NCBI GenBank assembly: GCA_002306085.1
Contig: DBRS01000014.1
Location: 10,690-74,689, forward strand
From: Candidatus Moranbacteria bacterium UBA1362
GTDB taxonomy: Bacteria; Patescibacteriota; Minisyncoccia; Moranbacterales; GWC2-37-73
Direction of reading: 5' to 3'
Length of the DNA stretch: 64,000 bases
A model generated the notes under the pieces. That model had not been told where the DNA came from, did not search any database, and saw only the letters and a list, made by a program, of their open reading frames with translations. Shown here in pieces: positions 5,802 to 60,986 of the stretch. A program made the translations under genes and the position numbers. Each line of letters starts with the position of its first letter. Positions within the stretch are counted from its first letter, which is position 1.

Positions 5802-6248
5802 ATGAATGTGCTGGCTACCAACAAAAGGGCGAGTTTTGATTATGAGCTTCTTGATCGTTATGAGGCTGGTTTAATGCTGACAGGAGCAGAAGTAAAATCG
5901 GCTAAAATGGGGCACATGAGCCTCAAGGGAAGCTTTGTTACAATGCATGGCGGAGAGTTGTACTTAACAAATGCCAGTATTTCTCCCTATAAATTCGCCG
6001 GAAGCTCCGAAAAATACGATCCAACCAGATCACGAAAACTGCTTGTTCACAAGTCCGAGATAAATTCTTTGGCGGGAAAAATGCACATAAAAGGCTTGAC
6101 ATTGGTGCCAGTTCGTGTGTATACTAAAAGACGACTTATCAAATTGGAATTCGCCATAGGACGTGGTAAAAAGGCTTTTGACAAGCGCCAAGATATTGCA
6201 AAAAAGGAAGCAAAACGCTACATAGACCGAAAACTCAGGAATGCCTGA
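5802..6248 (+). CDS. smpB: SsrA-binding protein SmpB
   Basis: 148 aa with strong similarity to SmpB (ASFDYELLDRYEAG...KLLVHKSEINSLAGK...GLTLVP). It lies immediately upstream of the tmRNA gene and ends with a TGA stop. Confidence 0.9.
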   Translation: MNVLATNKRASFDYELLDRYEAGLMLTGAEVKSAKMGHMSLKGSFVTMHGGELYLTNASISPYKFAGSSEKYDPTRSRKLLVHKSEINSLAGKMHIKGLTLVPVRVYTKRRLIKLEFAIGRGKKAFDKRQDIAKKEAKRYIDRKLRNA

Positions 6249-6287: not shown

Positions 6288-6323
6288 CCAGCTAAAAATT
6301 CAAAATTTTGAATTTTTAGCTGG
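6288..6323. repeat. Perfect 36-bp palindrome between smpB and tmRNA
   Basis: ccagctaaaaattcaaaa|ttttgaatttttagctgg is exactly self-complementary. Its last two bases overlap the GGGG start of tmRNA. It probably acts as the smpB terminator or as a processing or promoter element. Confidence 0.7.
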
Positions 6324-6728
6324 GGTTGTTTAGTTTCGACAGGTTGTACTTTTCAAAATATGCAAGCCGACCATTGCCGTAATGTCGCCAAACTTTCGGC
6401 AAAGATATAAGTGCAAACTTCATATCAAAAGCAAAAGCGGTTTTCGCAAGAGGATTTGCTTTTGCTCCAGCTTTAGCTTAATTTAACAGCTTTAGCCATC
6501 GGACTGCCGATTTCTCATAAGCAATCTCCGGTGTCAATCATGAGGATAGTTTGATGCGGTTTTCCGGCTGCATCAAGTGAAATTCTTCCGGAAACTGCGC
6601 ATGTCGGGTTTTGTTTATTTCATACCGCATGCGCCGATCTCCGATTTTTTCGGAGGGAAATAAAACAAGCTTGTAGAATATTTTGGATTGTCAATTTTGG
6701 ACATGGGTGCGATTCCCATCAACTCCAC
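6322..6728 (+). ncRNA. ssrA: Transfer-messenger RNA (tmRNA, ssrA)
   Basis: The 5' end GGGGTTGTTTAGTTTCGACAGG matches the tmRNA 5' consensus (GGGGnuG...UUCGAC.GG). The 3' end GGACATGGGTGCGATTCCCATCAACTCCAC matches the tRNA-like T-arm and acceptor. The acceptor stem GGGGUUG/CAACUCC contains the G3:U70 alanine identity pair. An internal tag reading frame (...GCA AAA GCG GTT TTC GCA AGA GGA TTT GCT TTT GCT CCA GCT TTA GCT TAA) ends with ...PALA-stop about 110 nt from the 5' end. CCA is not encoded. It sits directly downstream of smpB. Confidence 0.85.
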
Positions 6729-6883
6729 TGAAAAAATTTTAAATACTAAAGCAACCTGACTACATTCCTTAGGAAAACTAGTCATGGTTCACTAAAGCCA
6801 TAAGAAAGAGATTTCGTTTCAAACCAAAACAACCAACCGGTCCGGCGCCACTAAGAACAAATGAAGCGATCCGGACTCCCTAT

Positions 6884-13422: not shown

Positions 13423-13579
13423 AAATATATTGTTACATTGTTATATTGTTAAATTGTTTTTTGGCTCAATCAAGAGCAATTTAGCCATCAAACAATTTAG
13501 CAATTTACTGGACTTGACTTTTATATCAATTTGGAGTATAATTAAAGGTTGGGAGCACATTACAAACTTGGAGGTTTAT

Positions 13580-18329: not shown

Positions 18330-19751
18330 TTATCTTATCCTCTGGAACAATGGCTCCGTCTTTTTTGTTTCAAGCGCTTTCTTGATCTTTTCAGCAGTTT
18401 CGGGAAGAAACGGAACCAAAAGTTGGGATATGATATAAAGATCGGAGTTCAGCTTTTCCATTACCTCCTTGAACCTATTTTCATCAGCCTTTTTGAGTTC
18501 CCACGGCTTATTGTCTTCGATATATTTATTGGCCTTGCGAACAAACATCCAAACATATTCAAGAGCCCTGTCTATTTCAAAATTTTCCAAATATTCGGAA
18601 ATTTTTCCATCAGGTTTTACATCGGGAATTTGAAATTCCAAATTTTGGGAAAGTTTTATGACTCGCGAGGTCAGATTTCCCAATCCGTTCGCCAGGTCAG
18701 CATTATATTTTTCCGTCATCCTCTCCCACGTGATATCTCCGTCTTTGGACGATGGCAGTGACGTGAGAAGCACATAACGTGCGCCGTCAATTCCGAATTT
18801 TTCCACAACTTCTTCCGGATTGATAATATTTCCCAAAGTTTTGGATATCTTCTGATTGTTTATCGTGAGATATTCATGCGAAAGAATTTGGGTCGGAACG
18901 GAAACTCCCGCCGAAAGCAGCATGGCGGGCCAATAGATCGCATGGAACCTCAATATCCCTTTTCCAATCACATGCACCCTATTTTCATTCTCCAGCCAAT
19001 ATTTCTTATAAAGATCTCCTTCATTCTCATAGCCAAGCGCGGTGATATAATTCGAAAGCGCATCCACCCAGACATACATGATCTGGCCCTCGTCACCCGG
19101 AACCGGAACACCCCAATTTTCCGCACGTTTCACGCTTCTTGAAATCGAAAAATCTTCAAGACCCTGCCTGATAAAGCTCAACACTTCATTTTTTCTGTAT
19201 TCCGGCACAATTTTCAAAGTGTCGCTCTCAATCAACTCTTCGAGTTTTTTCTGATAGTTTGACAACTTGAAAAAATAATTTTCTTCTTCGACAACTTCGC
19301 ATTCCGTAAGATGGTCGGGGCATTTTCCGTCAACAAGATCTTTTTCCATCTTGAACTCCTCGCATCCAACACAATAAAGACCTTTGTAATTTTTTTTATA
19401 AATATCTTCTTTCTTGAAAGACGACCATAATTTCTGCGCTCCGGCAAAATGCTCCTTTTTCGCGGTTCTTATGAACTGATTGTACGAAAGGTTGAGCATA
19501 CCCTTAAGCCCCTGAAAGCTCTTGGCGTTTTCATCAATGAATTCTTCCGTCGATTTCCCCGCTTTTTTCGCGCTTTGCACATTCTTAAGACTGTTGTCAT
19601 CGGAACCCGTCAAAAAATATGTGTCATCTTTCAAGACGTCACGATGCCAACGCGCCAGAACATCGGCCTGGATTTTTTCCACGGCATGCCCGACATGCGG
19701 TTTGGCGTTCACATAGTCAATTGCTGTTGTTACGTAATATCTATTTTTCAT
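18330..19751 (-). CDS. metG: Methionyl-tRNA synthetase (minimal core form)
   Basis: 473 aa. It has the class I HIGH-type motif (AKPHVGHA), a zinc knuckle (CVGCEEF...CPDH) and the KMSKS-type motif KISKTLGN. Confidence 0.85.
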   Translation of the reverse strand: MKNRYYVTTAIDYVNAKPHVGHAVEKIQADVLARWHRDVLKDDTYFLTGSDDNSLKNVQSAKKAGKSTEEFIDENAKSFQGLKGMLNLSYNQFIRTAKKEHFAGAQKLWSSFKKEDIYKKNYKGLYCVGCEEFKMEKDLVDGKCPDHLTECEVVEEENYFFKLSNYQKKLEELIESDTLKIVPEYRKNEVLSFIRQGLEDFSISRSVKRAENWGVPVPGDEGQIMYVWVDALSNYITALGYENEGDLYKKYWLENENRVHVIGKGILRFHAIYWPAMLLSAGVSVPTQILSHEYLTINNQKISKTLGNIINPEEVVEKFGIDGARYVLLTSLPSSKDGDITWERMTEKYNADLANGLGNLTSRVIKLSQNLEFQIPDVKPDGKISEYLENFEIDRALEYVWMFVRKANKYIEDNKPWELKKADENRFKEVMEKLNSDLYIISQLLVPFLPETAEKIKKALETKKTEPLFQRIR

Positions 19752-19997
19752 ATTAAGAATGATGTTACATAAAAATAGTAGAAGCTAATAGCACCTACTG
19801 ACAAACGACAATGAAATAAACATTTATATCAACTAAATTTTATATTGGCACTGTTTTAATGATTAGGCAAGTCCTAAGAAACTTTCGCAATAAATTAGCC
19901 ATGTAAATCACAATTAATGTTTTTATATAGCATATCAACATGTTCACGTATGGTCAGTATTTTATTACCTATACAGATTTATTTCGCGTCTATTCTC

Positions 19998-22515: not shown

Positions 22516-22807
22516 CATCTTGTTGTCATTCCGGCCATTAAGCTGAAGCCCAGAAAAACATCTCTTTCGGATTCCCGCTTTTCTGTCGCTTTGCTTCCTT
22601 TGCCATGCAAAGCATTGCAAGCAAGCAGGAGAATGACATTGCTTATCTTGTTACGTAGCATAGAGGCCTCTATAGAGGTCTCTATTTAAAAACACCATTT
22701 ATATGTTTTGAAAAATTTTAGAAACCAGTCTTATAAGATTTTCATTTTACAGATGGCCGCATAATTATGAAAATTTTGCATTTTCTGAAAAATTGGTGTC
22801 CAGAATT

Positions 22808-24663: not shown

Positions 24664-25638
24664 TTATACCCTATTTTTCCTTAAAAATATCTTGACGACA
24701 TGCCACGCTTGCTTTGCGCTTTTGGTTCCCATCAATTCTGTTCTCAAACCTTTTGCCCCATCAAAACCGCTTGCGTAGACTGCATAATGTTTTTTAATCA
24801 CGTTGTAATTTTTTGTGCCCTTTAAAAATTTTTCAAACAATCTGGCATGCTCAATCATTGCTTCAAGACGTTCTGCAACGGGAACATTTTCAATTTTAAC
24901 CTTGTGGTTGAAAAACCAGGGATTTCCCAAAACTCCCCTTCCTACCATAATCCCATCCACTCCCGATTCTTTCGCTTTTCGCACTCCGTCTTTGCGGCTT
25001 TTTATATCACCGTTGCCGATTATCACAACTCCGCTGCCTTTTGCAATCTCAACCGCGCGCTTGATTGCGTCCCAATCCGCCGTGCCGGCAAATGATTGTT
25101 TTTTTGTGCGCCCGTGAACTATTATGGCTGCAGGTTTTTCCGACAAAAGTTCGGCAAGCCACGACTCAATTTCATTTTCGCTCCAGCCGATCCTCGTTTT
25201 TACTGAAACAGGCAGATCGCCCGCACCTTTTTTTGCCGCCCGAATTATTTCCCTCGCCCGCTTGGGATTTTTCATAAGCGCCGCTCCCGCTCCCTGATCG
25301 ACGATGCTCTTGTCAGGACATCCCATGTTGATGTCGATCCCGTCAAAACCGAGTTTTCTTGCGACTTCCGCGCAATATCGAAAATTTTCCGGCCTTGCGC
25401 CGAAAAATTGCGCCACAATAAGATGTTCATCCTCGAGAAACCTCAAATTTTTCATCAATATTTTCTTTGCGTCTTTATTGACCAATCCGTCGCAAGCGAC
25501 AAATTCTGTGAAAAGAACATCCGGTTTGCCATACTTAACAAGCATCTGCCTCGTGGCGATGTCGGTAACGTCATGCATCGGAGCCAGCACAAAGAACGGC
25601 TTTTTCTTCTTTGCCAATTTTTGCCAAAAATTATTCAT
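24664..25638 (-). CDS. dus: tRNA-dihydrouridine synthase
   Basis: 324 aa. The FMN TIM-barrel motifs are FVLAPMHDVTD and GIDINMGCPDKSIV (catalytic Cys). Confidence 0.85.
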   Translation of the reverse strand: MNNFWQKLAKKKKPFFVLAPMHDVTDIATRQMLVKYGKPDVLFTEFVACDGLVNKDAKKILMKNLRFLEDEHLIVAQFFGARPENFRYCAEVARKLGFDGIDINMGCPDKSIVDQGAGAALMKNPKRAREIIRAAKKGAGDLPVSVKTRIGWSENEIESWLAELLSEKPAAIIVHGRTKKQSFAGTADWDAIKRAVEIAKGSGVVIIGNGDIKSRKDGVRKAKESGVDGIMVGRGVLGNPWFFNHKVKIENVPVAERLEAMIEHARLFEKFLKGTKNYNVIKKHYAVYASGFDGAKGLRTELMGTKSAKQAWHVVKIFLRKNRV

Positions 25639-25685
25639 AAATAAAGATTACTATATAAGCAAGAAAAGCGCCAAGAAATTATAAA

Positions 25686-25784
25686 GAGCCAAACAATTGT
25701 TTTTTGCGGCTTCCGCATGAATGCATCATAAACCAGGTTTGTGATGCATGAATGTAAGGCAAGCAAAAAATAATTGTTTGGCTC
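25686..25784. repeat. 99-bp element with 22-bp near-perfect terminal inverted repeats
   Basis: The arm gagccaaacaattgttttttgc lies at 25686-25707 and gcaaaaaataattgtttggctc at 25763-25784 (one mismatch). The 55-bp loop contains the direct repeat gcatgaatg twice. It sits just downstream of the minus-strand gene ending at 25799. Confidence 0.6.
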
Positions 25785-25798
25785 AGTCCAAAATCTAG

Positions 25799-26170
25799 CT
25801 ATTCTACGGTTTTTCCCAAGTTCGTCTTCTTAAAATTCACTTTCCAGACCGGTTCGTAAACATTGTCAAATTCATCCTTGGCAACAACCGTTTCTCCTTT
25901 CATGAGTGTTGAAATAGCAATATCATTCAGCATTTCTTTTTGCGAATCGACTTCCAGTTTCAAGTCTTCCAGTTTTTCATATGACCTTCCCAATTGCGCC
26001 TGTATCCTTGTTTCGATCGCCTTCTTCTTTTCTCGCAATTCCTTAATCTTTTCCACGATTTCTTCATACTCGTCAGTCTGCACGAGCGCGTCCTTATACA
26101 TGTCGCGCAGATCCTTCTGCTCTTTTTTCATCTCACGGATTTTGTTGAACACTTCTTGAACGTTTTGCAT
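25799..26170 (-). CDS. Hypothetical coiled-coil protein
   Basis: 123 aa and highly charged (KELREKKKAIETRIQAQLGRSYEKLEDLKLEV). No known domain was found. Confidence 0.4.
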   Translation of the reverse strand: MQNVQEVFNKIREMKKEQKDLRDMYKDALVQTDEYEEIVEKIKELREKKKAIETRIQAQLGRSYEKLEDLKLEVDSQKEMLNDIAISTLMKGETVVAKDEFDNVYEPVWKVNFKKTNLGKTVE

Positions 26171-26317
26171 ACTATTTTAGTATGGATTAAATGATTATTT
26201 TGCGATGACGAAATCAATGATAGCACATTTTGTAAAATCCAAAAAGAAAAAGCGCCGCAGCTCCCATGTGTGGGAACCGCGACGCATGCATGCTTCAGCG
26301 CCGTCACAATCTTATTT

Positions 26318-26737
26318 TCATACCGCAAACAGATGATTGGGATCCGCTATCCCAATATACTTGTGGAAAATCGGTATTTTGTCACCATAATGGCAGACGC
26401 TCAAAATCCTTACGTGCACGTGATATCCTTTTTTGATCGCATCTGTCAAAGACTTCCTATGCTGATGCAAATTATTCACGACCATAGAGCCTGTGGTGCC
26501 ATCTTCTCTTCTAAAGAAAATTTTACCTTTCCATACCTGTAATTTGACTGGGGCCAATTCAATCGTTTCCTCTTTGCGAAAAATACATCTGATCTGAGGT
26601 GCACTATAACATGCCCAAGCTATTCGTGAAAACCAACCTGCCGCAAAACAAGCAACACCAATTACTATGACCGTTATAATTGTCATATAACCTCCTCCCG
26701 GGATAAATTTTTGAATGTCAAAAAACTGAAGTGCCAT
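26318..26737 (-). CDS. Hypothetical protein with N-terminal TM anchor
   Basis: 139-aa ORF. The TM helix is TIITVIVIGVACFAAGWF. The start may instead be the internal Met at ~26686. Confidence 0.35.
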   Translation of the reverse strand: MALQFFDIQKFIPGGGYMTIITVIVIGVACFAAGWFSRIAWACYSAPQIRCIFRKEETIELAPVKLQVWKGKIFFRREDGTTGSMVVNNLHQHRKSLTDAIKKGYHVHVRILSVCHYGDKIPIFHKYIGIADPNHLFAV

Positions 26738-26892
26738 GAAAAACCCATTTTTTCTTTACTTCAAGATATTATCAAACAAAAATAAAGGCAAACCCAATTA
26801 TTCACACAACCACATGAAGTAGCATGGTAGCAGAAAAGAACCTGTATACATGGAAAAATTTTCGCAACCGTAAGTTTCTCGATACGTGCCTC

Positions 26893-26924
26893 AAACTGTT
26901 ATGTAACATGTTACATAACAGTTT
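26893..26924. promoter_or_regulatory. Perfect 32-bp palindrome (candidate operator) upstream of gene 26318..26737
   Basis: aaactgttatgtaacatgttacataacagttt is exactly self-complementary. Confidence 0.5.
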
Positions 26925-26950
26925 ATATAACACTTTACGCAACAGATTTG

Positions 26951-26985
26951 GAAAAAGAAAAGGCCGATACTTTGTGGTATCGGCC
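26951..26985 (-). terminator. Rho-independent terminator of gene 27023..27436
   Basis: 9-bp perfect stem ggccgatac/gtatcggcc, followed on the minus strand by ttttctttttcc. Confidence 0.7.
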
Positions 26986-27022
26986 ACTTGAAATGATATT
27001 TCATAACCAAATCAACCGTTCA

Positions 27023-27436
27023 TCAGGCCACTCGCCTCCCTTGCTTCCTCAGCTTTTTCTCCAACTCTTCTTCCCGCTTCTTCTGTTGTTTAACGTGCAC
27101 TGAAAAGCAAATCCGTTTCAACCACTCCTCTTTCTTAAATTCCGACGTTGAAAAAGAAACTCCTATGATGTGCTCACCGTGATTGAGGGATCTTATCTGG
27201 CGATGAAAAACTGCACTATTCAAAAATGATTCACTGATGATTTCCATGATATGTTTCTTGCTTCCATGTTGCGCATCATTTGAATTTTCATCGCCATTGT
27301 CCTCACTATCTTGGTGAAAATGTTCCGGGCAATTGACTACTATTTCGACATTACCGCCACAACTCCTGAGAGTCGCGGAAACATATGTTTCATCCTGCGT
27401 CTTAATTAGAATCTCAAACACACCCTTTGATTCCAC
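27023..27436 (-). CDS. Hypothetical protein
   Basis: 137 aa with an acidic and His-rich middle region. No known domain was found. Confidence 0.35.
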   Translation of the reverse strand: MESKGVFEILIKTQDETYVSATLRSCGGNVEIVVNCPEHFHQDSEDNGDENSNDAQHGSKKHIMEIISESFLNSAVFHRQIRSLNHGEHIIGVSFSTSEFKKEEWLKRICFSVHVKQQKKREEELEKKLRKQGRRVA

Positions 27437-27564
27437 ATCTCCCCTCCTGAAATTTGGCTCATATTGATTACAATTTTAAACAACAACCTATCTCTGCTGC
27501 AAATGAAAAATCCTTTATCTATAATACAACACAAAAGCTCATATTTTGCAAATAGAACGATAAA

Positions 27565-27600
27565 TGAAAAAGAGGGCGCGAAGCCCTCTTTGTAGTTTTT
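27565..27600. terminator. Bidirectional hairpin terminator (agagggc-gcgaa-gccctct)
   Basis: The stem-loop is flanked by A-run and T-run on both sides. It terminates the minus-strand gene 27737..28438. Confidence 0.6.
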
Positions 27601-27626
27601 ATGAGTCTTTTTTATCTTTGACTCTT

Positions 27627-27690
27627 CCCCACGCCAACAGAGATTAAGATGAATTACTCTCGGTTGGTGTGGGGATTTTTTTGTTTTTTT
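27627..27690 (+). terminator. Strong plus-strand hairpin plus T-run with no upstream plus-strand gene
   Basis: ccccacgccaacagag...ctctcggttggtgtgggg followed by attttttttgtttttttgttttt. It may be a second terminator or the 3' end of an unannotated small RNA. Confidence 0.45.
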
Positions 27691-27736
27691 GTTTTTGTTA
27701 TTAAGTTTTTCTCACTGTATTTAAATTTTTCAATTT

Positions 27737-28438
27737 TCACAGATACTCAGACAGCTTGTCGTAATAGTATGTAATATCCCTTATCCATTTCTGTTCGCTG
27801 GAATCGCCTTGACATCCTTTGTAGCCACATTTCCAGACAACCATTTTATTCGGAGTATCAAGCTTTTCTTCGTTGATCATCTGGCTGATTCTGGCCGCCA
27901 CAGTTTCGACGGCCTCCCTTGGAGAGTTGAAGCACGAATGTCCTCCGCTTCCCGTTTTTTCAGTTTTCATACGAAAGCCCCAATAATTGTAGCAGTCTTT
28001 TCCGTTGAGTACAGGCTTACGCTTGCCCCAGTTGCTTTCTTTCTTGGCAATGCTTACCAAAAATGCGGCTACCTGCGGATCCTGCATGGCTATATACGGA
28101 GCCATTTTTCCGATCGGATAGCCTTTCACCATTTTTTTTATTTCCATCTCGAAAGCTATGTTCCTTTTTTCCTCTTCCACAACTATCGGTTCTTCACCAA
28201 AACCTTTGACAAGAAAAAAGGCTGCCGCGACAGTAATCGAAAAAATGAACAGTAGCACGGGAACCAAAACTATGCTCCTATCTTTGCGGAGGTTTCCCAT
28301 CGTGAGCGGCATCGCAATTGCAGTTTTCACCGGCTTGCTACTGCGTTTCCGCAAACATGAAGACCTTTTTTTGGGAAGTTTTTTGTTTTTTTTGGAGATT
28401 TTTCTCATTTTTTTGTTTTTGAAAGCAAAAACGGGCAA
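27737..28438 (-). CDS. Membrane-anchored hypothetical protein, possible peptidoglycan hydrolase-like (ESxWG motif)
   Basis: 233-aa ORF. The probable true start is the internal MPLTMGNLRK, followed by a TM helix. AKKESNWGK resembles the E-S-G-W-G catalytic region of glucosaminidase/FlgJ-like domains. The C-terminus is Cys-rich. Confidence 0.3.
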   Translation of the reverse strand: MPVFAFKNKKMRKISKKNKKLPKKRSSCLRKRSSKPVKTAIAMPLTMGNLRKDRSIVLVPVLLFIFSITVAAAFFLVKGFGEEPIVVEEEKRNIAFEMEIKKMVKGYPIGKMAPYIAMQDPQVAAFLVSIAKKESNWGKRKPVLNGKDCYNYWGFRMKTEKTGSGGHSCFNSPREAVETVAARISQMINEEKLDTPNKMVVWKCGYKGCQGDSSEQKWIRDITYYYDKLSEYL

Positions 28439-28644
28439 CCACCCGTTTCTACCCTATCTTTATCCCATATATCTATTATACACCTTTTTGGGTAAAAAAT
28501 CAACCCCCGCTAAGAAACTGACAAGCCATTGATATATCATCAAGTATTTTTAAATCTTAAATAATATATCTCATGACCGATCGTTCTTATTTTTCGATTG
28601 ATCAGCTCTTAACGGAATTGATAATGGTGGCAAAGAAACACAAA

Positions 28645-30426
28645 CTATTTCTTGTTTTCTCTGCTGTAATTTTTCCAAAGAACGCGAAAATTTTCGTCGG
28701 AAAGAAGATCATTGAAAGTTCCCTCTGCAACTATTCTGCTGTTCTTAAAAAGATAGATGTAATCGAACTCTTTGAGAAGATGCAACCCGTGCACTGCGGA
28801 AATGACGACTTTGTCCTTGAAATTTTCAAAGATGTTCCGATATATTTCCGCCTCGTTTTCAATGTCGACACTGCTCGTCGGTTCATCCAGAAGCAGAAAC
28901 TGGCTATCCTTCGCGGCAAGGAACCCTCTGGCAAGCGCAAGTCTCTGCTTTTCTCCGCCGCTTAAGGATACTCCCCTTTCCATGACGTTTGTTTTGAGAC
29001 CTTTTTCAAGCCGTGAAATCAATTTGTCAAGCCTGGACATTTTTACGGCTTTTTCGATTTCATCTTCGCTCACATGAACTCCCATTGTTATATTATATTC
29101 AATTGTATTGTTGAATATTTCAGGTTCCTGCGGAATCAGCGTGCAATAATTGTGGATATGTTTAAGTCCGTGCTTCAGTTTTTTCCCATCACAAAAAACT
29201 TTGGCGTCGTCCGGCTCGTGCAATCCTCTCAAAAGTGAAAGAACAGTGCTCTTCCCCGAGCCGCTCGTACCGATAAGCGCGATTTTCATATTTCTTTCAA
29301 AACTCAATGACGCATCGGTTACGGCATATACTTTTAAATCTGAATCAATCTCCTGCCTGTAGGAAAAATTGAGCTGTTTAATCTGAATCGTCTTCCATTT
29401 TCTTGGAAGCGAATATCTTCTCCCGAGCCGCAGCTTGTCATATTCTTCATTTATCGTTTCGGCGGCCATAACAGCCTCGTTTTGCCTCACTGTCTCGCTG
29501 TATTTCCAGGCAAAAGTATCGAATGCGTTTCCGATATTGTTAAGATACTGATAAAGAACGAACAGCGTTCCGATTACTATGACTCCCTGATTTTTATATG
29601 ACACATACACATTAAGCAAAATAACCGCTGCTGTCATGACCTCGATGATCATGCTTGACGTAAACCACTTCGATTCGTTCAAAATTGAGCTTCTCAGAAA
29701 AACCCTGTACGGCTCCATCGACCGTTTTTCAATTTCTTTTGCGGCGCTTTTTTTGAGTCGCAGCGAAATTATTGTTATGTAGTTGCTGATGTAGTCGTAA
29801 ATTCCGGCCGCGATATTATTTTCGCCCTTGAAAATAATTTTGTAATGCCTTATCAACGCTTTGTCGAATTTCAATATCACATATACGGCAACAGCCGCAG
29901 TGAAAAGTGCAATGAAAACCGGATTTATGTCATACAATCCCATTATGATTATCGATACGACAAAAGCGGTGAAATTTTGAATAATGAAAAAAAGTTCGCT
30001 GGAAAATGTGAAGAGATTTTCGCTTGCCTTGTTAATCTTGTCGATTGTGTCTCCGGAATGATGGTCTTTGTGCCACCGCGCGGGCAGTTCCATGGTCCGT
30101 TCAAACATCGTTTGCCTGTAGTTTTTCCTTATCAAAAACGCGTTTCTGTTCTCAATTGTTCTTGAGATAAAATTAAATATCCACCCCATTATGCTCAGTA
30201 CGATCAGAAGGCCGACATTATACGCGATAAAAAGGATCGGGTTTGATTTTTCGGTAGCGAATTGTATCTCATTAAATATTCTCCCGATCACAACCGGCTG
30301 AAGGAGCCAGATGATGTTTCCGATCAAGGAAAACACAACAACAAAAATGTATGCCGTTTTTATTCCAGCTGCATATTCCCAAGAATATCTGAAAATGTTG
30401 TAGAGAGGATTTTTAGAATACATCAT
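28645..30426 (-). CDS. ABC transporter, fused permease/ATP-binding (type I exporter, MsbA/bacteriocin-exporter-like)
   Basis: 593 aa. It has a 6-TM N-terminal domain, Walker A GTSGSGKST, signature LSGGEKQRLALARGF and Walker B FLLLDEPTS. There is no N-terminal C39 peptidase domain. Confidence 0.9.
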   Translation of the reverse strand: MMYSKNPLYNIFRYSWEYAAGIKTAYIFVVVFSLIGNIIWLLQPVVIGRIFNEIQFATEKSNPILFIAYNVGLLIVLSIMGWIFNFISRTIENRNAFLIRKNYRQTMFERTMELPARWHKDHHSGDTIDKINKASENLFTFSSELFFIIQNFTAFVVSIIIMGLYDINPVFIALFTAAVAVYVILKFDKALIRHYKIIFKGENNIAAGIYDYISNYITIISLRLKKSAAKEIEKRSMEPYRVFLRSSILNESKWFTSSMIIEVMTAAVILLNVYVSYKNQGVIVIGTLFVLYQYLNNIGNAFDTFAWKYSETVRQNEAVMAAETINEEYDKLRLGRRYSLPRKWKTIQIKQLNFSYRQEIDSDLKVYAVTDASLSFERNMKIALIGTSGSGKSTVLSLLRGLHEPDDAKVFCDGKKLKHGLKHIHNYCTLIPQEPEIFNNTIEYNITMGVHVSEDEIEKAVKMSRLDKLISRLEKGLKTNVMERGVSLSGGEKQRLALARGFLAAKDSQFLLLDEPTSSVDIENEAEIYRNIFENFKDKVVISAVHGLHLLKEFDYIYLFKNSRIVAEGTFNDLLSDENFRVLWKNYSRENKK

Positions 30427-50642: not shown

Positions 50643-51032
50643 TCATCCCTCCCGCATCTTTTTCCCGAGAAAATCGACTATTTCTTTGTCGCCGACATAA
50701 CAATTTTTGCCATCCCACAAAAGCGGCACGCCGATTGAATTTTCTTCGATGCCGCAGGATAATGCTTTTTCCCTCAATTCTCTTGCATTCGCGCTGTTAA
50801 AATAAATTTCTTTCCTGGAAATGCTCACTTTTTCTTCCACATTATTTTCACTTATAAATCTTTCTACATTCGCGCAGTGGGGACAGCTTTCCCCGTAAAA
50901 CAGAGTCACCCCGTTCGGTGACTGCGGGTCCTGCCCGAAGAATTCTCTGCTTTCTCCTCCGAAAAGAACGAAAGCCAAAAAAGCCGCGGCAATGACGGTA
51001 AAAATAATAGATATTTTTGTTTCTTGTTGCAT
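50643..51032 (-). CDS. Membrane-anchored glutaredoxin/thioredoxin-like protein (CPHC active site)
   Basis: 129 aa with an N-terminal TM. LFYGESCPHCANVERF fits a glutaredoxin-like fold. It is a paralog of 58344..58754. Confidence 0.65.
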   Translation of the reverse strand: MQQETKISIIFTVIAAAFLAFVLFGGESREFFGQDPQSPNGVTLFYGESCPHCANVERFISENNVEEKVSISRKEIYFNSANARELREKALSCGIEENSIGVPLLWDGKNCYVGDKEIVDFLGKKMREG

Positions 51033-51070
51033 AACATTTTATGCCGATCTATTTCTGCCGAAAGAAAAAT

Positions 51071-60033: not shown

Positions 60034-60378
60034 TTAAAATGGTTTAGTGATATTTACGTCATCCACTCTGACTTTGTGAGAAATAATCAAAGACTTCAAA
60101 TGTTCCCTGAATTCTTGCATTGGCACAAGCCCGCTTCGTGCGTTTGTCAAAGCTTGAAATCCATCCGCTTTAGTTAAATTCAATCCGAGAGCCACCACTC
60201 CCATATTGAAACCAAGCTGGATCTTCCGCTCTTCGGATAAATCATCCCACTTGTCTACTTGTGTAAATCGTAGCACTTGTTCACAGGCGTGAATAACAAA
60301 ATCATTCATATTATTTCTTATATCTATAATTATATCATAAAAAGCTTTGGAGTTATATTGGTATAAAAAATAACCCAA
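60034..60378 (-). CDS. Hypothetical protein
   Basis: 114 aa with no motif. It lies immediately 3' of the intron-containing tRNA gene. Confidence 0.3.
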   Translation of the reverse strand: MGYFLYQYNSKAFYDIIIDIRNNMNDFVIHACEQVLRFTQVDKWDDLSEERKIQLGFNMGVVALGLNLTKADGFQALTNARSGLVPMQEFREHLKSLIISHKVRVDDVNITKPF

Positions 60379-60440: not shown

Positions 60441-60986
60441 ACATTATCTCTTTGTTTCCAAAAAGGGTGGACTATATCATCTCCTTTACAGGAGTGAGGC
60501 GCTTCCCGGAATTTAAAATTCCAGTACTCTCTTGCAAGATAGTCTCTGAACCTTTCCCGGATGATGGGACTTGGCTGCTGATTACCATAATTTCTGCTGA
60601 GAAATGTTAGGCTTCCAGCAATTCACCTCATTCTTCACTTCCAAATTTCTTTGGAAGGCTGCGAATGTTATTATGCAACTCTCTGTGGCAATTTGCGCAT
60701 ACAAGAATGCATTTTTCAACTTCACCTTTCACTCTCTCCCAGCTGCGGGTCAAACCCGATTGGGAAACGCCAAATTCTTTTTTGAAGAATCGGCATGATG
60801 AAATTCCAATGCATCACTGCAACGATCATAGCCACAAAGCGCACACCTACCGCCTCCATATTGAATTGCCATTTCTCTAAGTTTCTTGCGTCTTTTTGAA
60901 ACAGCCTTGATCATATACTCTCGGCGGTCAGCATATTTTCGGGTATCCTTCATATATTTTAATTATAACATGAAGGAACGTGTACC
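60441..60986 (-). ncRNA. Group I self-splicing intron (inserted in tRNA anticodon loop)
   Basis: The minus strand contains the canonical group I core elements R (GTTCAGAGACTA, plus-strand coords 60541-60552) and S (GATATAGTCC, 60470-60479). The intron ends in G before the 3' exon. The 5' exon ends in U, consistent with a P1 U.G pair. Confidence 0.7.
60583..60953 (-). pseudogene. Decayed HNH homing-endonuclease gene inside the intron
   Basis: The 67-aa ORF 60750..60953 encodes ...GGGRCALCGYDRCSDALEFHHADSSKKN (a CxxC knuckle plus the HH of HNH). The same frame, interrupted by two TGA stops, continues as ...KNAFLYAQIATES..., where the second knuckle (N..LC..CH) has mutated to Y/I/A. Confidence 0.5.

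Follow-up and report, generated by a model that had tools for sequence, protein, structure and literature searches.

A probable gene-turnover spot with four small genes and a palindrome of tandem boxes in a Moranbacteria-like Patescibacterium

Organization of the locus

The locus described here spans positions 25686 to 28438 of a 64,000-nucleotide stretch (hereafter the window) of contig DBRS01000014.1 from Candidatus Moranbacteria bacterium UBA1362. It holds four small minus-strand genes, numbered 1 to 4 by increasing coordinate, an exact 32-bp palindrome and several hairpins. The four open reading frames (ORFs) and the other elements reported in the initial annotation are all present where it placed them. 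The joint explanation that accounts best for these elements, and that is held with moderate confidence, is that the interval is a gene-turnover spot, that the four genes form four units with their own terminators and that the palindrome is a protein-binding site made of tandem boxes. The features are as follows (window coordinates; loci fetched from public contigs are identified below by L numbers).

24664-25638: dusB, the neighbour on the side of gene 1
25686..25784, minus strand: long hairpin (99 nt) that separates gene 1 from dusB; its outer arms measure 22 nt and its inner stem 13 bp
25799..26170, minus strand: gene 1, 123 aa, member of a conserved family (~117 aa) whose fold comprises three long helices and, at the C-terminus, a short beta hairpin
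26252..26285, minus strand: predicted intrinsic terminator of gene 2 (consensus scan), a 15-bp stem with 10 G-C pairs, then TTTTTCTTTT
26253..26952, no strand: ~700-bp block with the palindrome, gene 2 and the gene 2 terminator, absent from the sister species L011
26318..26737, minus strand: gene 2 ORF, 139 aa, an orphan with an N-terminal transmembrane helix
26893..26924, no strand: 32-bp palindrome AAACTGTTATGTAACATGTTACATAACAGTTT, composed of AAAC, TGTTATGTAACA, TGTTACATAACA and GTTT
26962..26985, minus strand: predicted intrinsic terminator of gene 3 (consensus scan), GGCCGATAC...GTATCGGCC, then TTTTCTTTTT
27023..27436, minus strand: gene 3, 137 aa, acidic and His-rich, with a GTG start behind AGGAGG
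27569..27591, minus strand: predicted intrinsic terminator of gene 4 (consensus scan), AAAGAGGGC-TTCGC-GCCCTCTTT, then TTCATTTAT
27603..27624, no strand: second hairpin of the module behind gene 4, GAGTC...GACTC, with a short stem
27627..27700, plus strand: 17-pair hairpin (27627-27674) with a T-run to ~27700, facing against the genes
27737..28438, minus strand: gene 4, at most 233 aa; the N-terminal tail is rich in Lys, a single transmembrane helix is present and the ectodomain (~150 aa) is conserved
28645-30426: ABC exporter gene, the neighbour on the side of gene 4

Transcription units

The four genes had been described as one block punctuated by palindromes. A consensus terminator scan (loop of 3-8, at most 20 pairs) points instead to four monocistronic units, each with its own terminator. 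A G+C-rich stem-loop followed by a U-run is found 3' of the stop codon of genes 2, 3 and 4. The gene 3 terminator shows 90% conservation in L011 and the gene 4 terminator is kept in L011, L016 and L013, while strong Shine-Dalgarno sequences are read before genes 2 and 3. Genes 1 to 4 are predicted to be separate transcription units that would be transcribed independently, each transcript ending at its own hairpin terminator.

Behind gene 1 the candidate is the 99-nt hairpin, most likely the gene 1 intrinsic terminator or a 3'-end hairpin, in either case unusually long. It was first recognized as a 99-bp element with 22-bp inverted termini and was recovered by the repeat finder at 25686..25784. 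The arms (25686-25707 and 25763-25784) are 95% complementary and 55 nt apart, and no second copy of this inverted repeat occurs in the 64-kb window. Folding of the whole element gives z-scores of -6.7 (minus strand) and -10.5 (plus strand). The hairpin is very stable, but its stem is long and A+T-rich, with the minus-strand tail UUUAUAAUUUCUU, and it was not reported by the scan within the limits on loop and pairs given above. It is conserved in L011, whose counterpart has the tail UUUUUAUAAUUU and three stem substitutions (A to G, C to U and one terminal). They are all G.U-compatible on the gene-sense strand, which fits a role at the RNA level as gene 1 terminator or 3' hairpin. The element has no match among the Rfam families.

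Variable gene content behind gene 4

Many public contigs, from anaerobic digesters and sludge, carry a protein identical to the 123-aa product of gene 1. Ten fetched near-clonal contigs show 99.8-100% identity to window 25400-28800; they corroborate the window sequence and leave almost no variation for covariation tests. Note that in the assembly L001 (GCA_040766145.1) small indels at the equivalents of window 28058, 28014 and 26632 fragment the called genes 4 and 2. As the sequence is otherwise identical, these are probably assembly errors and not real pseudogenes.

More distant contigs differ in gene content. The window order is gene 4, gene 3, gene 2, gene 1, dus; the sister species L011 has the same order without gene 2, and L013 and L014 have only gene 4 and dus. 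L015 features gene 4, a 98-aa Cys-rich protein, gene 1 and dus. The slot from gene 4 to gene 1 or dus is occupied by unrelated small genes in L015 (L015:9112-9408, the Cys-rich and zinc-ribbon-like protein) and in L016 (L016:1173-2070, proteins of 153 and 132 aa). The set of small genes found in this gap thus changes from one related species to the next. The interval between the ABC exporter gene and dusB would be a gene-turnover spot in the chromosome of a Moranbacteria-like Patescibacterium from anaerobic digesters.

The boundaries of one such difference are delimited by blastn comparison with L011: window 26993-26952 joins L011 3234-3276, and window 26253 onward joins L011 3264 onward. The ~700-bp block found only in the window has terminator T-tails, TTTTCTTTTT and TTTTTCTTTTT, as its edges. 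Either the block was inserted here, or L011 lost it through deletion between two short direct repeats.

The 32-bp palindrome is made of two abutting boxes

The exact 32-bp palindrome at 26893..26924, within this block, was confirmed by the repeat finder. The initial annotation saw in it a single site far longer than a typical operator. It consists instead of two abutting 12-bp near-palindromic boxes of the widely recurring TGTTAYRTAACA motif with a 4-bp extension on each side. It is not a common repeat of the window, where it is unique even with 3 mismatches allowed; none of 100 shuffles gave a match. It starts 27 nt after the T-tail of the gene 3 terminator, and its RNA folds at -20.7 kcal/mol (z = -5.2). 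The promoter position that had been assigned to it relative to gene 2 is only loosely true, since it lies ~206 nt upstream of the likely start of this gene.

Single near-matches to TGTTACGTAACA (1-2 mismatches) are found at window 19728-19739, 19763-19774, 22649-22660 and 51025-51036, so that with the two boxes of the palindrome the window has 6 boxes against 1.29 expected. The start codon of the Met-tRNA ligase gene lies between two of the near-matches, and one extends over the start of a 129-aa ORF. All four may be due to chance.

Recurrence of the tandem box across genomes

The sequence TGTTAYRTAACATGTTAYRTAACA was searched in one genome per species (185,579 species). It occurs at 35 loci, 26 of which are exactly TGTTACGTAACATGTTACGTAACA, where the authors' arithmetic gives a chance expectation from ~0.07 (uniform composition) to ~1 (all DNA of 35% G+C). 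Most of these loci belong to Patescibacteria (Moran-, Sacchari-, Kaiser- and Staskawiczbacteria, Paceibacterota, Parcubacteria). The others are from Omnitrophota and from metagenome-assembled genomes (MAGs) labelled Bdellovibrionales, Planctomycetia, Gammaproteobacteria, Muribaculaceae, Eggerthella and Bacillota. The exact form is present at 41 further metagenome loci and in only 2 viral contigs; a phage-operator origin was rejected on this low viral count. After removal of duplicates there are 66 distinct sites, organized as arrays of 2-4 boxes, and the palindrome of the window would be one instance of this tandem-array motif at ~66 unrelated sites. The sites have only 24-28 bp in common and their flanks are unrelated, similarity between sites ending 1-4 bp past the 24-mer, and an origin from a miniature inverted-repeat transposable element or the end of an insertion sequence was rejected for that reason.

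A third or fourth box, often degenerate, frequently abuts the pair, and boxes weaken towards the edges of the array. Where the sequence varies, the symmetry that is generally preserved is that of the 24-mer as a whole and not that of each box: ATGT/ACAT in the window, ACAT/ATGT in L017, L034 and L030, AGCA abutting TGCT in L068. Reference genomes have 1-3 exact arrays. Outside the arrays, the same contigs carry 12 extra boxes at no more than 1 mismatch, against 1.15 +/- 1.3 for 119 composition-matched control palindromes; these are mostly further tandem pairs in other intergenic spacers.

About 93% of the sites are intergenic, in genomes that are ~90% coding, and many lie 10-160 bp upstream of a start codon. 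The exact 24-bp pair is also found inside genes (L021:4860-4883, L022:2792-2815, and in L036 and L042), which code for a MurE-type ligase, for the MiaA part of a MiaB-MiaA fusion ORF and for two giant proteins. Its in-frame translation is LRNMLRN (the ATAT variant gives LYNMLYN), which in MurE and MiaA forms part of native helices. Alignment to the solved MurE and MiaA structures revealed no inserted residues at the boxes, a result that speaks against a mobile insert and in favour of a constraint acting at the DNA level. In-frame insertion of the kind known for Rickettsia palindromic elements was rejected on the same alignments.

The genes next to the sites are mixed, coding among others for Fic, NUDIX, histidine phosphatase, pyridine-nucleotide oxidoreductase, short-chain dehydrogenase/reductase (SDR), IleRS, ZIP transporter, P-type ATPase, rubrerythrin, RhuM, DUF1016, Mrr and methyltransferase proteins and, once, for an integrase. 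Three arrangements are described separately. Four box sites occur within ~20 kb of one 118-kb contig (L054:2406-2429, 4350-4373 and 9653-9664; L064:3331-3354), in short spacers between successive tandem paralogues of ~500-670 aa without Pfam domain; the flanks are conserved between these spacers. Three arrays (L068:4342-4396, 6119-6142 and 13543-13566) lie in a defence-type cluster (Abi_2, RadC, ResIII helicase, Mrr); one of them is the symmetric variant TGTTACGTAGCA abutting TGCTACGTAACA, and a Y1 transposase of IS200-like type is encoded ~940 bp away from one array. Finally, a small AbrB/SpoVT-like ORF (52-58 aa), 39-112 bp from the box pair, precedes a gene for DUF1016 (YhcG-type nuclease) at L023:2468-2644 and L043:4286-4444. 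These two loci come from different MAGs with different box variants (ATAT and ACGT cores), and the AbrB-like protein is the sole small DNA-binding candidate seen twice.

Full-text literature searches with the motif strings returned only primers and unrelated sequences. By the searchable literature, the 12-bp box TGTTACGTAACA in tandem is previously undescribed.

Possible function of the tandem boxes

The tandem boxes are most likely a putative protein-binding site, by analogy with tandem operators. A symmetric DNA-binding protein would read adjacent boxes cooperatively, as tandem operator boxes are read. MetJ met-boxes and operators of Arc/CopG type are likewise short palindromic boxes with an ACGT-type centre, set head to tail in arrays of 2-4 at a fixed period; such tandem operators are read cooperatively by small dimeric repressors. 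The boxes described here differ in measuring 12 bp instead of 8 bp, in that no cognate repressor gene was found and in having no clear tie to a promoter. No transcription factor was recognized among ten small proteins of the window. The window variant, TTATGT-N8-ACATAA, has half-sites that resemble those of PadR-type operators and of the Deinococcus radiation/desiccation response motif (RDRM), which is the operator of DdrO. ATGT-N8-ACAT is the spacing of PadR operators. The RDRM is a 17-bp site with shorter spacing (for example GGTTATGCTATTTACATAAC; PMC8533742), and the box elsewhere commonly has ACGT and not ATGT/ACAT. The neighbourhoods of the sites showed neither an XRE/COG2856 nor a PadR gene, and these likenesses offer a lead only.

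Several observations weigh against this reading. The sameness of the exact 24-mer between sites is partly an artefact of exact-match searching, and the intragenic copies are unexplained by a simple operator model. No Pfam family recurs more than 3 times among the nearest 150 neighbour proteins, and neither all-against-all comparison nor clustering of small ORFs revealed a shared neighbour, bar the AbrB-like/DUF1016 pair at two loci. Sequences resembling a -10 element show no asymmetry (19 on the promoter side and 17 on the gene side, of 31), and in the window the palindrome is ~118 nt upstream of the sole promoter-like match for gene 2 (26775-26747). The upstream stop is nearer than the downstream start in ~18 of 26 same-strand spacers (counted by eye), and convergent spacers exceed divergent ones by 8 to 4. 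This stop-side and convergent bias fits a 3'-end element, or one like the repetitive extragenic palindromes (REPs), at least as well as a promoter operator.

Such a REP-like or 3'-end element, which would work either in the RNA, as a stabilising or road-blocking 3' hairpin, or through recognition by a domesticated Y1 transposase, is the second reading in order of preference, although on balance an unlikely one. The bias just described extends to all ~10 long same-strand spacers, that of the window included. Like the boxes, the palindromes of the REP/RAYT system (RAYT, REP-associated tyrosine transposase, IS200-like Y1) are extragenic, often found just behind stops or terminators and set among unrelated neighbours, as is usual for dispersed repeats. 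A terminator-like hairpin lies within 30 nt at 18 of 64 sites, terminators pointing at and away from sites being about even (10 to 8). The folding of the window copy as RNA and the Y1 transposase gene of L068, which has three arrays, also agree with this reading. REPs are, however, usually species-specific, whereas the same box sequence spans several phyla. Copy number is low where many copies would be expected, with a single copy in the 64-kb window at no more than 3 mismatches and the 1-3 exact arrays per reference genome. Moreover, the intragenic copies are not insertions, no U-tract follows the hairpin on either strand, and the Y1_Tnp gene was seen only at L068. Those window ORFs that were scanned, a part of the total, included none.

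The two remaining explanations are ranked well behind. That the boxes are chromosome-organising sites similar to those of ParB or Noc, read by a conserved nucleoid protein and not gene-specific, is considered very improbable. It is in keeping with the few sites per genome, tens of kb apart on long contigs, with neighbours that have nothing in common and with the in-frame sites inside essential genes without change of length, as for parS; the box also equals the canonical parS TGTTTCACGTGAAACA minus two bases per half (the authors' observation). Against it stand the strong intergenic preference of the sites, the small minority of Patescibacteria species that have an exact array (35 loci in 185,579 species) and the boxes placed in duplicated spacers before tandem paralogues of one genome, a disposition like that of gene-linked cis-regulation. 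No ParB-like gene recurs nearby. The canonical 16-bp parS itself, TGTTNCACGTGAAACA, was searched and rejected, with no match in the window at 2 mismatches or fewer and none in 53 loci, the box being of 12 bp.

Slightly less probable still is a site-specific recombinase core with 13-bp arms AAACTGTTATGTA and TACATAACAGTTT around ACATGT that would have delivered gene 2 as a cassette. Its 13-6-13 layout is that of tyrosine-recombinase core sites, namely those of Xer/dif, lox and FRT, which also have inverted arms, a 6-bp centre and a total length of ~28-34 bp. The palindrome is near one edge of the ~700-bp block that is missing from the sister species, many accessory or defence genes neighbour the sites elsewhere (Fic, RhuM, DUF1016, Mrr, Abi_2, aminoglycoside nucleotidyltransferase), and one site is 347 bp from an integrase gene. 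The recombination site suggested by the initial annotation is nevertheless not borne out, because the block junction is not at the palindrome centre but 27-28 bp beyond the palindrome, in a T-tract, and the empty position of L011 has no half-site. The two block ends have only TTTTCTTTTT in common and could equally result from microhomology deletion or insertion between terminator tails. Near the 66 sites no family of recombinases is seen repeatedly, the fully symmetric spacer gives no directionality, and arrays of 3-4 boxes with 12-bp periodicity are unlike crossover sites. A Xer/dif terminus site was rejected separately: cumulative GC skew falls monotonically over the 64 kb, without the switch that marks a chromosomal dif, and other genomes have 2-3 arrays.

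The order of preference is thus a cooperative operator before a REP-like 3'-end element, and then the recombination core and parS-like sites. A broader proposal is put forward tentatively: (TGTTACGTAACA)n may be the recognition site of a widely shared DNA-binding protein, or belong to a mobile palindrome system, of ultra-small or host-dependent bacteria (Patescibacteria, Omnitrophota and the MAGs labelled Bdellovibrionales or Planctomycetia), the window holding a symmetric variant. With the same reserve, selection might have been strong enough to write the box in frame into the essential murE and miaA.

The hairpin module behind gene 4

A plus-strand hairpin terminator without a gene to terminate had been reported between genes 3 and 4. 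The structure is real, conserved and has the shape of an intrinsic terminator, with a stem-loop directly before a U-run: the hairpin 27627-27674 (-31.8 kcal/mol, z = -5.6) is followed by TTTTTTTGTTTTTTTGTTTTT on the plus strand. In sense order it is part of a module that comprises an A-rich tract (the plus-strand T-run), the large hairpin CCCCAC...GTGGGG, the small hairpin GAGTC...GACTC and the sense terminator of gene 4. The three hairpins are conserved in three species (the window, L011 and L016). L011 and L016 retain the T-run and the stem of the large hairpin, in which one pair shows a compensatory change (C-G to U-A), while L013 keeps the A/T-rich tract and hairpins 2 and 3 and is without the large hairpin 1. 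Among near-clonal strains, a G-to-A change at 27633 in L005 and L008 turns a G.U of the large hairpin into A-U, and an 8-nt insertion in L007 (AAAAACAA, sense strand) at window 27697 lengthens the A/T tract. A permissive Rfam 15 search over 25600-28500 gave best scores of 15-24 bits, against thresholds of 44-140, with E from 0.4 to 5.

The simplest reading is that of a back-to-back terminator pair, in which the plus-strand hairpin would be the antisense-facing half and would stop transcripts running backwards into gene 4. As in known bidirectional or back-to-back intrinsic terminators, a hairpin with U-run for the sense strand stands beside one for the opposite strand. The module differs in having separate hairpins for each direction with a third small hairpin between them; also, the downstream gene has the same direction and no annotated gene needs an antisense terminator.

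Another possibility, regarded as doubtful, is that 27627-27700 terminates a small RNA of ~130-170 nt transcribed in the antisense direction from the spacer between genes 3 and 4 and containing all three hairpins. The canonical terminator shape on the plus strand and the far better conservation between species of the three-hairpin stretch than of gene 3 speak in its favour, as does the common allele at 27633, which pairs only as G.U and hence only in plus-strand RNA. A plus-strand TATAAT (27519-27524) is also present in L011, but on the minus strand it reads as the conserved -10-like box of gene 3, and L016 does not retain it. The promoter scan found no qualifying plus-strand promoter bar a weak one at 27447-27474, and there is no Rfam match with E-value below 0.3. 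The lack of hairpin 1 in L013, where the A/T tract and hairpins 2 and 3 remain, and the count of just one compensatory pair across 3 sequences also disfavour a small RNA.

Proteins coded by the four genes

Searches of the four proteins against Pfam, NCBIfam, PHROGs and PADLOC returned nothing above threshold; with the PADLOC defence profiles only gene 1 gave weak matches of coiled-coil type (E >= 1e-4) and genes 2-4 gave none. The initial statement that the four proteins have no confident homology holds for the 137-aa and 139-aa proteins but not for those of 233 and 123 aa, which belong to large conserved uncharacterised families.

For gene 4, 1,557 relatives were found at E <= 1e-3, none of which is named or has a Pfam domain, and its homologs are labelled Candidatus Moranbacteria or Patescibacteria. 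Its start is uncertain (TTG 28438 or ATG 28408), public gene calls ranging from 197 to 223 aa. The alignment of 37 relatives shows that the Lys-rich tail varies, that one hydrophobic helix is present and that conservation is strong in the C-terminal domain. Invariant residues include E134 of KKESNWG (37 of 37 homologs), YNYWGFR, H167 and four cysteines. The glucosaminidase-like ESNWG motif noted earlier was rightly recognized, with an invariant Glu in a lysozyme-like fold similar to that of glycoside hydrolase family 73 (GH73). From motif similarity, E134 would be the GH73 catalytic Glu.

The ectodomain has the lysozyme-like alpha fold of GH73 catalytic domains, common to N-acetylglucosaminidases such as the FlgJ C-terminal domain, LytB, AtlA and the endolysin Ecd09610, and displays their invariant Glu in E-S-x-W-G followed by an aromatic-Gly-(F/I)-(R/K) motif. 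Identity to classical GH73 proteins is only ~14% and the score against PF01832 (16.2 bits, E = 0.018) is below the curated gathering score of 30.2. There is no NCBIfam match, and comparison of the family profile with PDB sequences returned noise only. Gene 4 also differs from the classical family by its four invariant Cys and one His, and by a single N-terminal membrane anchor without cell-wall-binding repeats. Its product is called GH73-like and is not filed as a family member because fold and motif are present while the Pfam score is sub-threshold. It is probably a membrane-anchored peptidoglycan glycosidase, which would act as an extracytoplasmic GH73-like cell-wall hydrolase.

Gene 1 codes for a conserved family of small helical proteins that is uncharacterised. 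The family has 420 cluster representatives matching over the whole length, and identity in the two nearest species is 84-88%. The structure model (predicted local distance difference test, pLDDT, of 92.5) has three long helices and a beta hairpin. It resembled nothing specific among known structures, and the family profile gave noise only against PDB sequences.

Genes 2 and 3 are, as far as sequence comparison reaches, lineage-specific orphans, either young or fast-evolving. Among 5.8 billion clusters both have homologs only in the same species, and none of gene 2 was found in any fetched locus. The gene 2 protein most likely starts at its second Met (ATG 26686), giving 122 aa, as this codon is preceded by GGAGGAGG. 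Gene 3 is 34% identical to a 139-aa protein at the matching position of L011. Note that its residues 76-135 show a weak match to PHROG 3506 ('thymidylate synthase', E = 1.2e-5), confined to the C-terminal 60 residues.

Other features of the window

Away from the locus, the window carries a tmRNA gene (6322-6730, plus strand) with the tag peptide ANFISKAKAVFARGFAFAPALA, and a group I intron (60448-60687, minus strand; Rfam match of 85 bits). Rfam and ARAGORN detected no rRNA or tRNA host gene around the intron, which is adjoined by a 114-aa ORF (60034-60378).

Significance

The block is by itself ordinary, with small self-terminated genes at a variable spot of a reduced genome, and two of its three palindromic elements would be plain terminator structures. 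The palindrome matters as an instance of a tandem-box motif conserved across ultra-small bacteria, and not for its length. This motif occurs far above chance in organisms with almost no known cis-regulatory or chromosome-organising sites, and identifying its binding protein would make it one of the first DNA codes, regulatory or structural, to be known in Patescibacteria. Gene 4 represents a large unnamed family of predicted membrane-anchored GH73-like wall hydrolases found across the candidate phyla radiation (CPR), whose invariant Glu, His and four Cys make it easy to test. This family bears on how episymbionts may remodel or attack cell walls.

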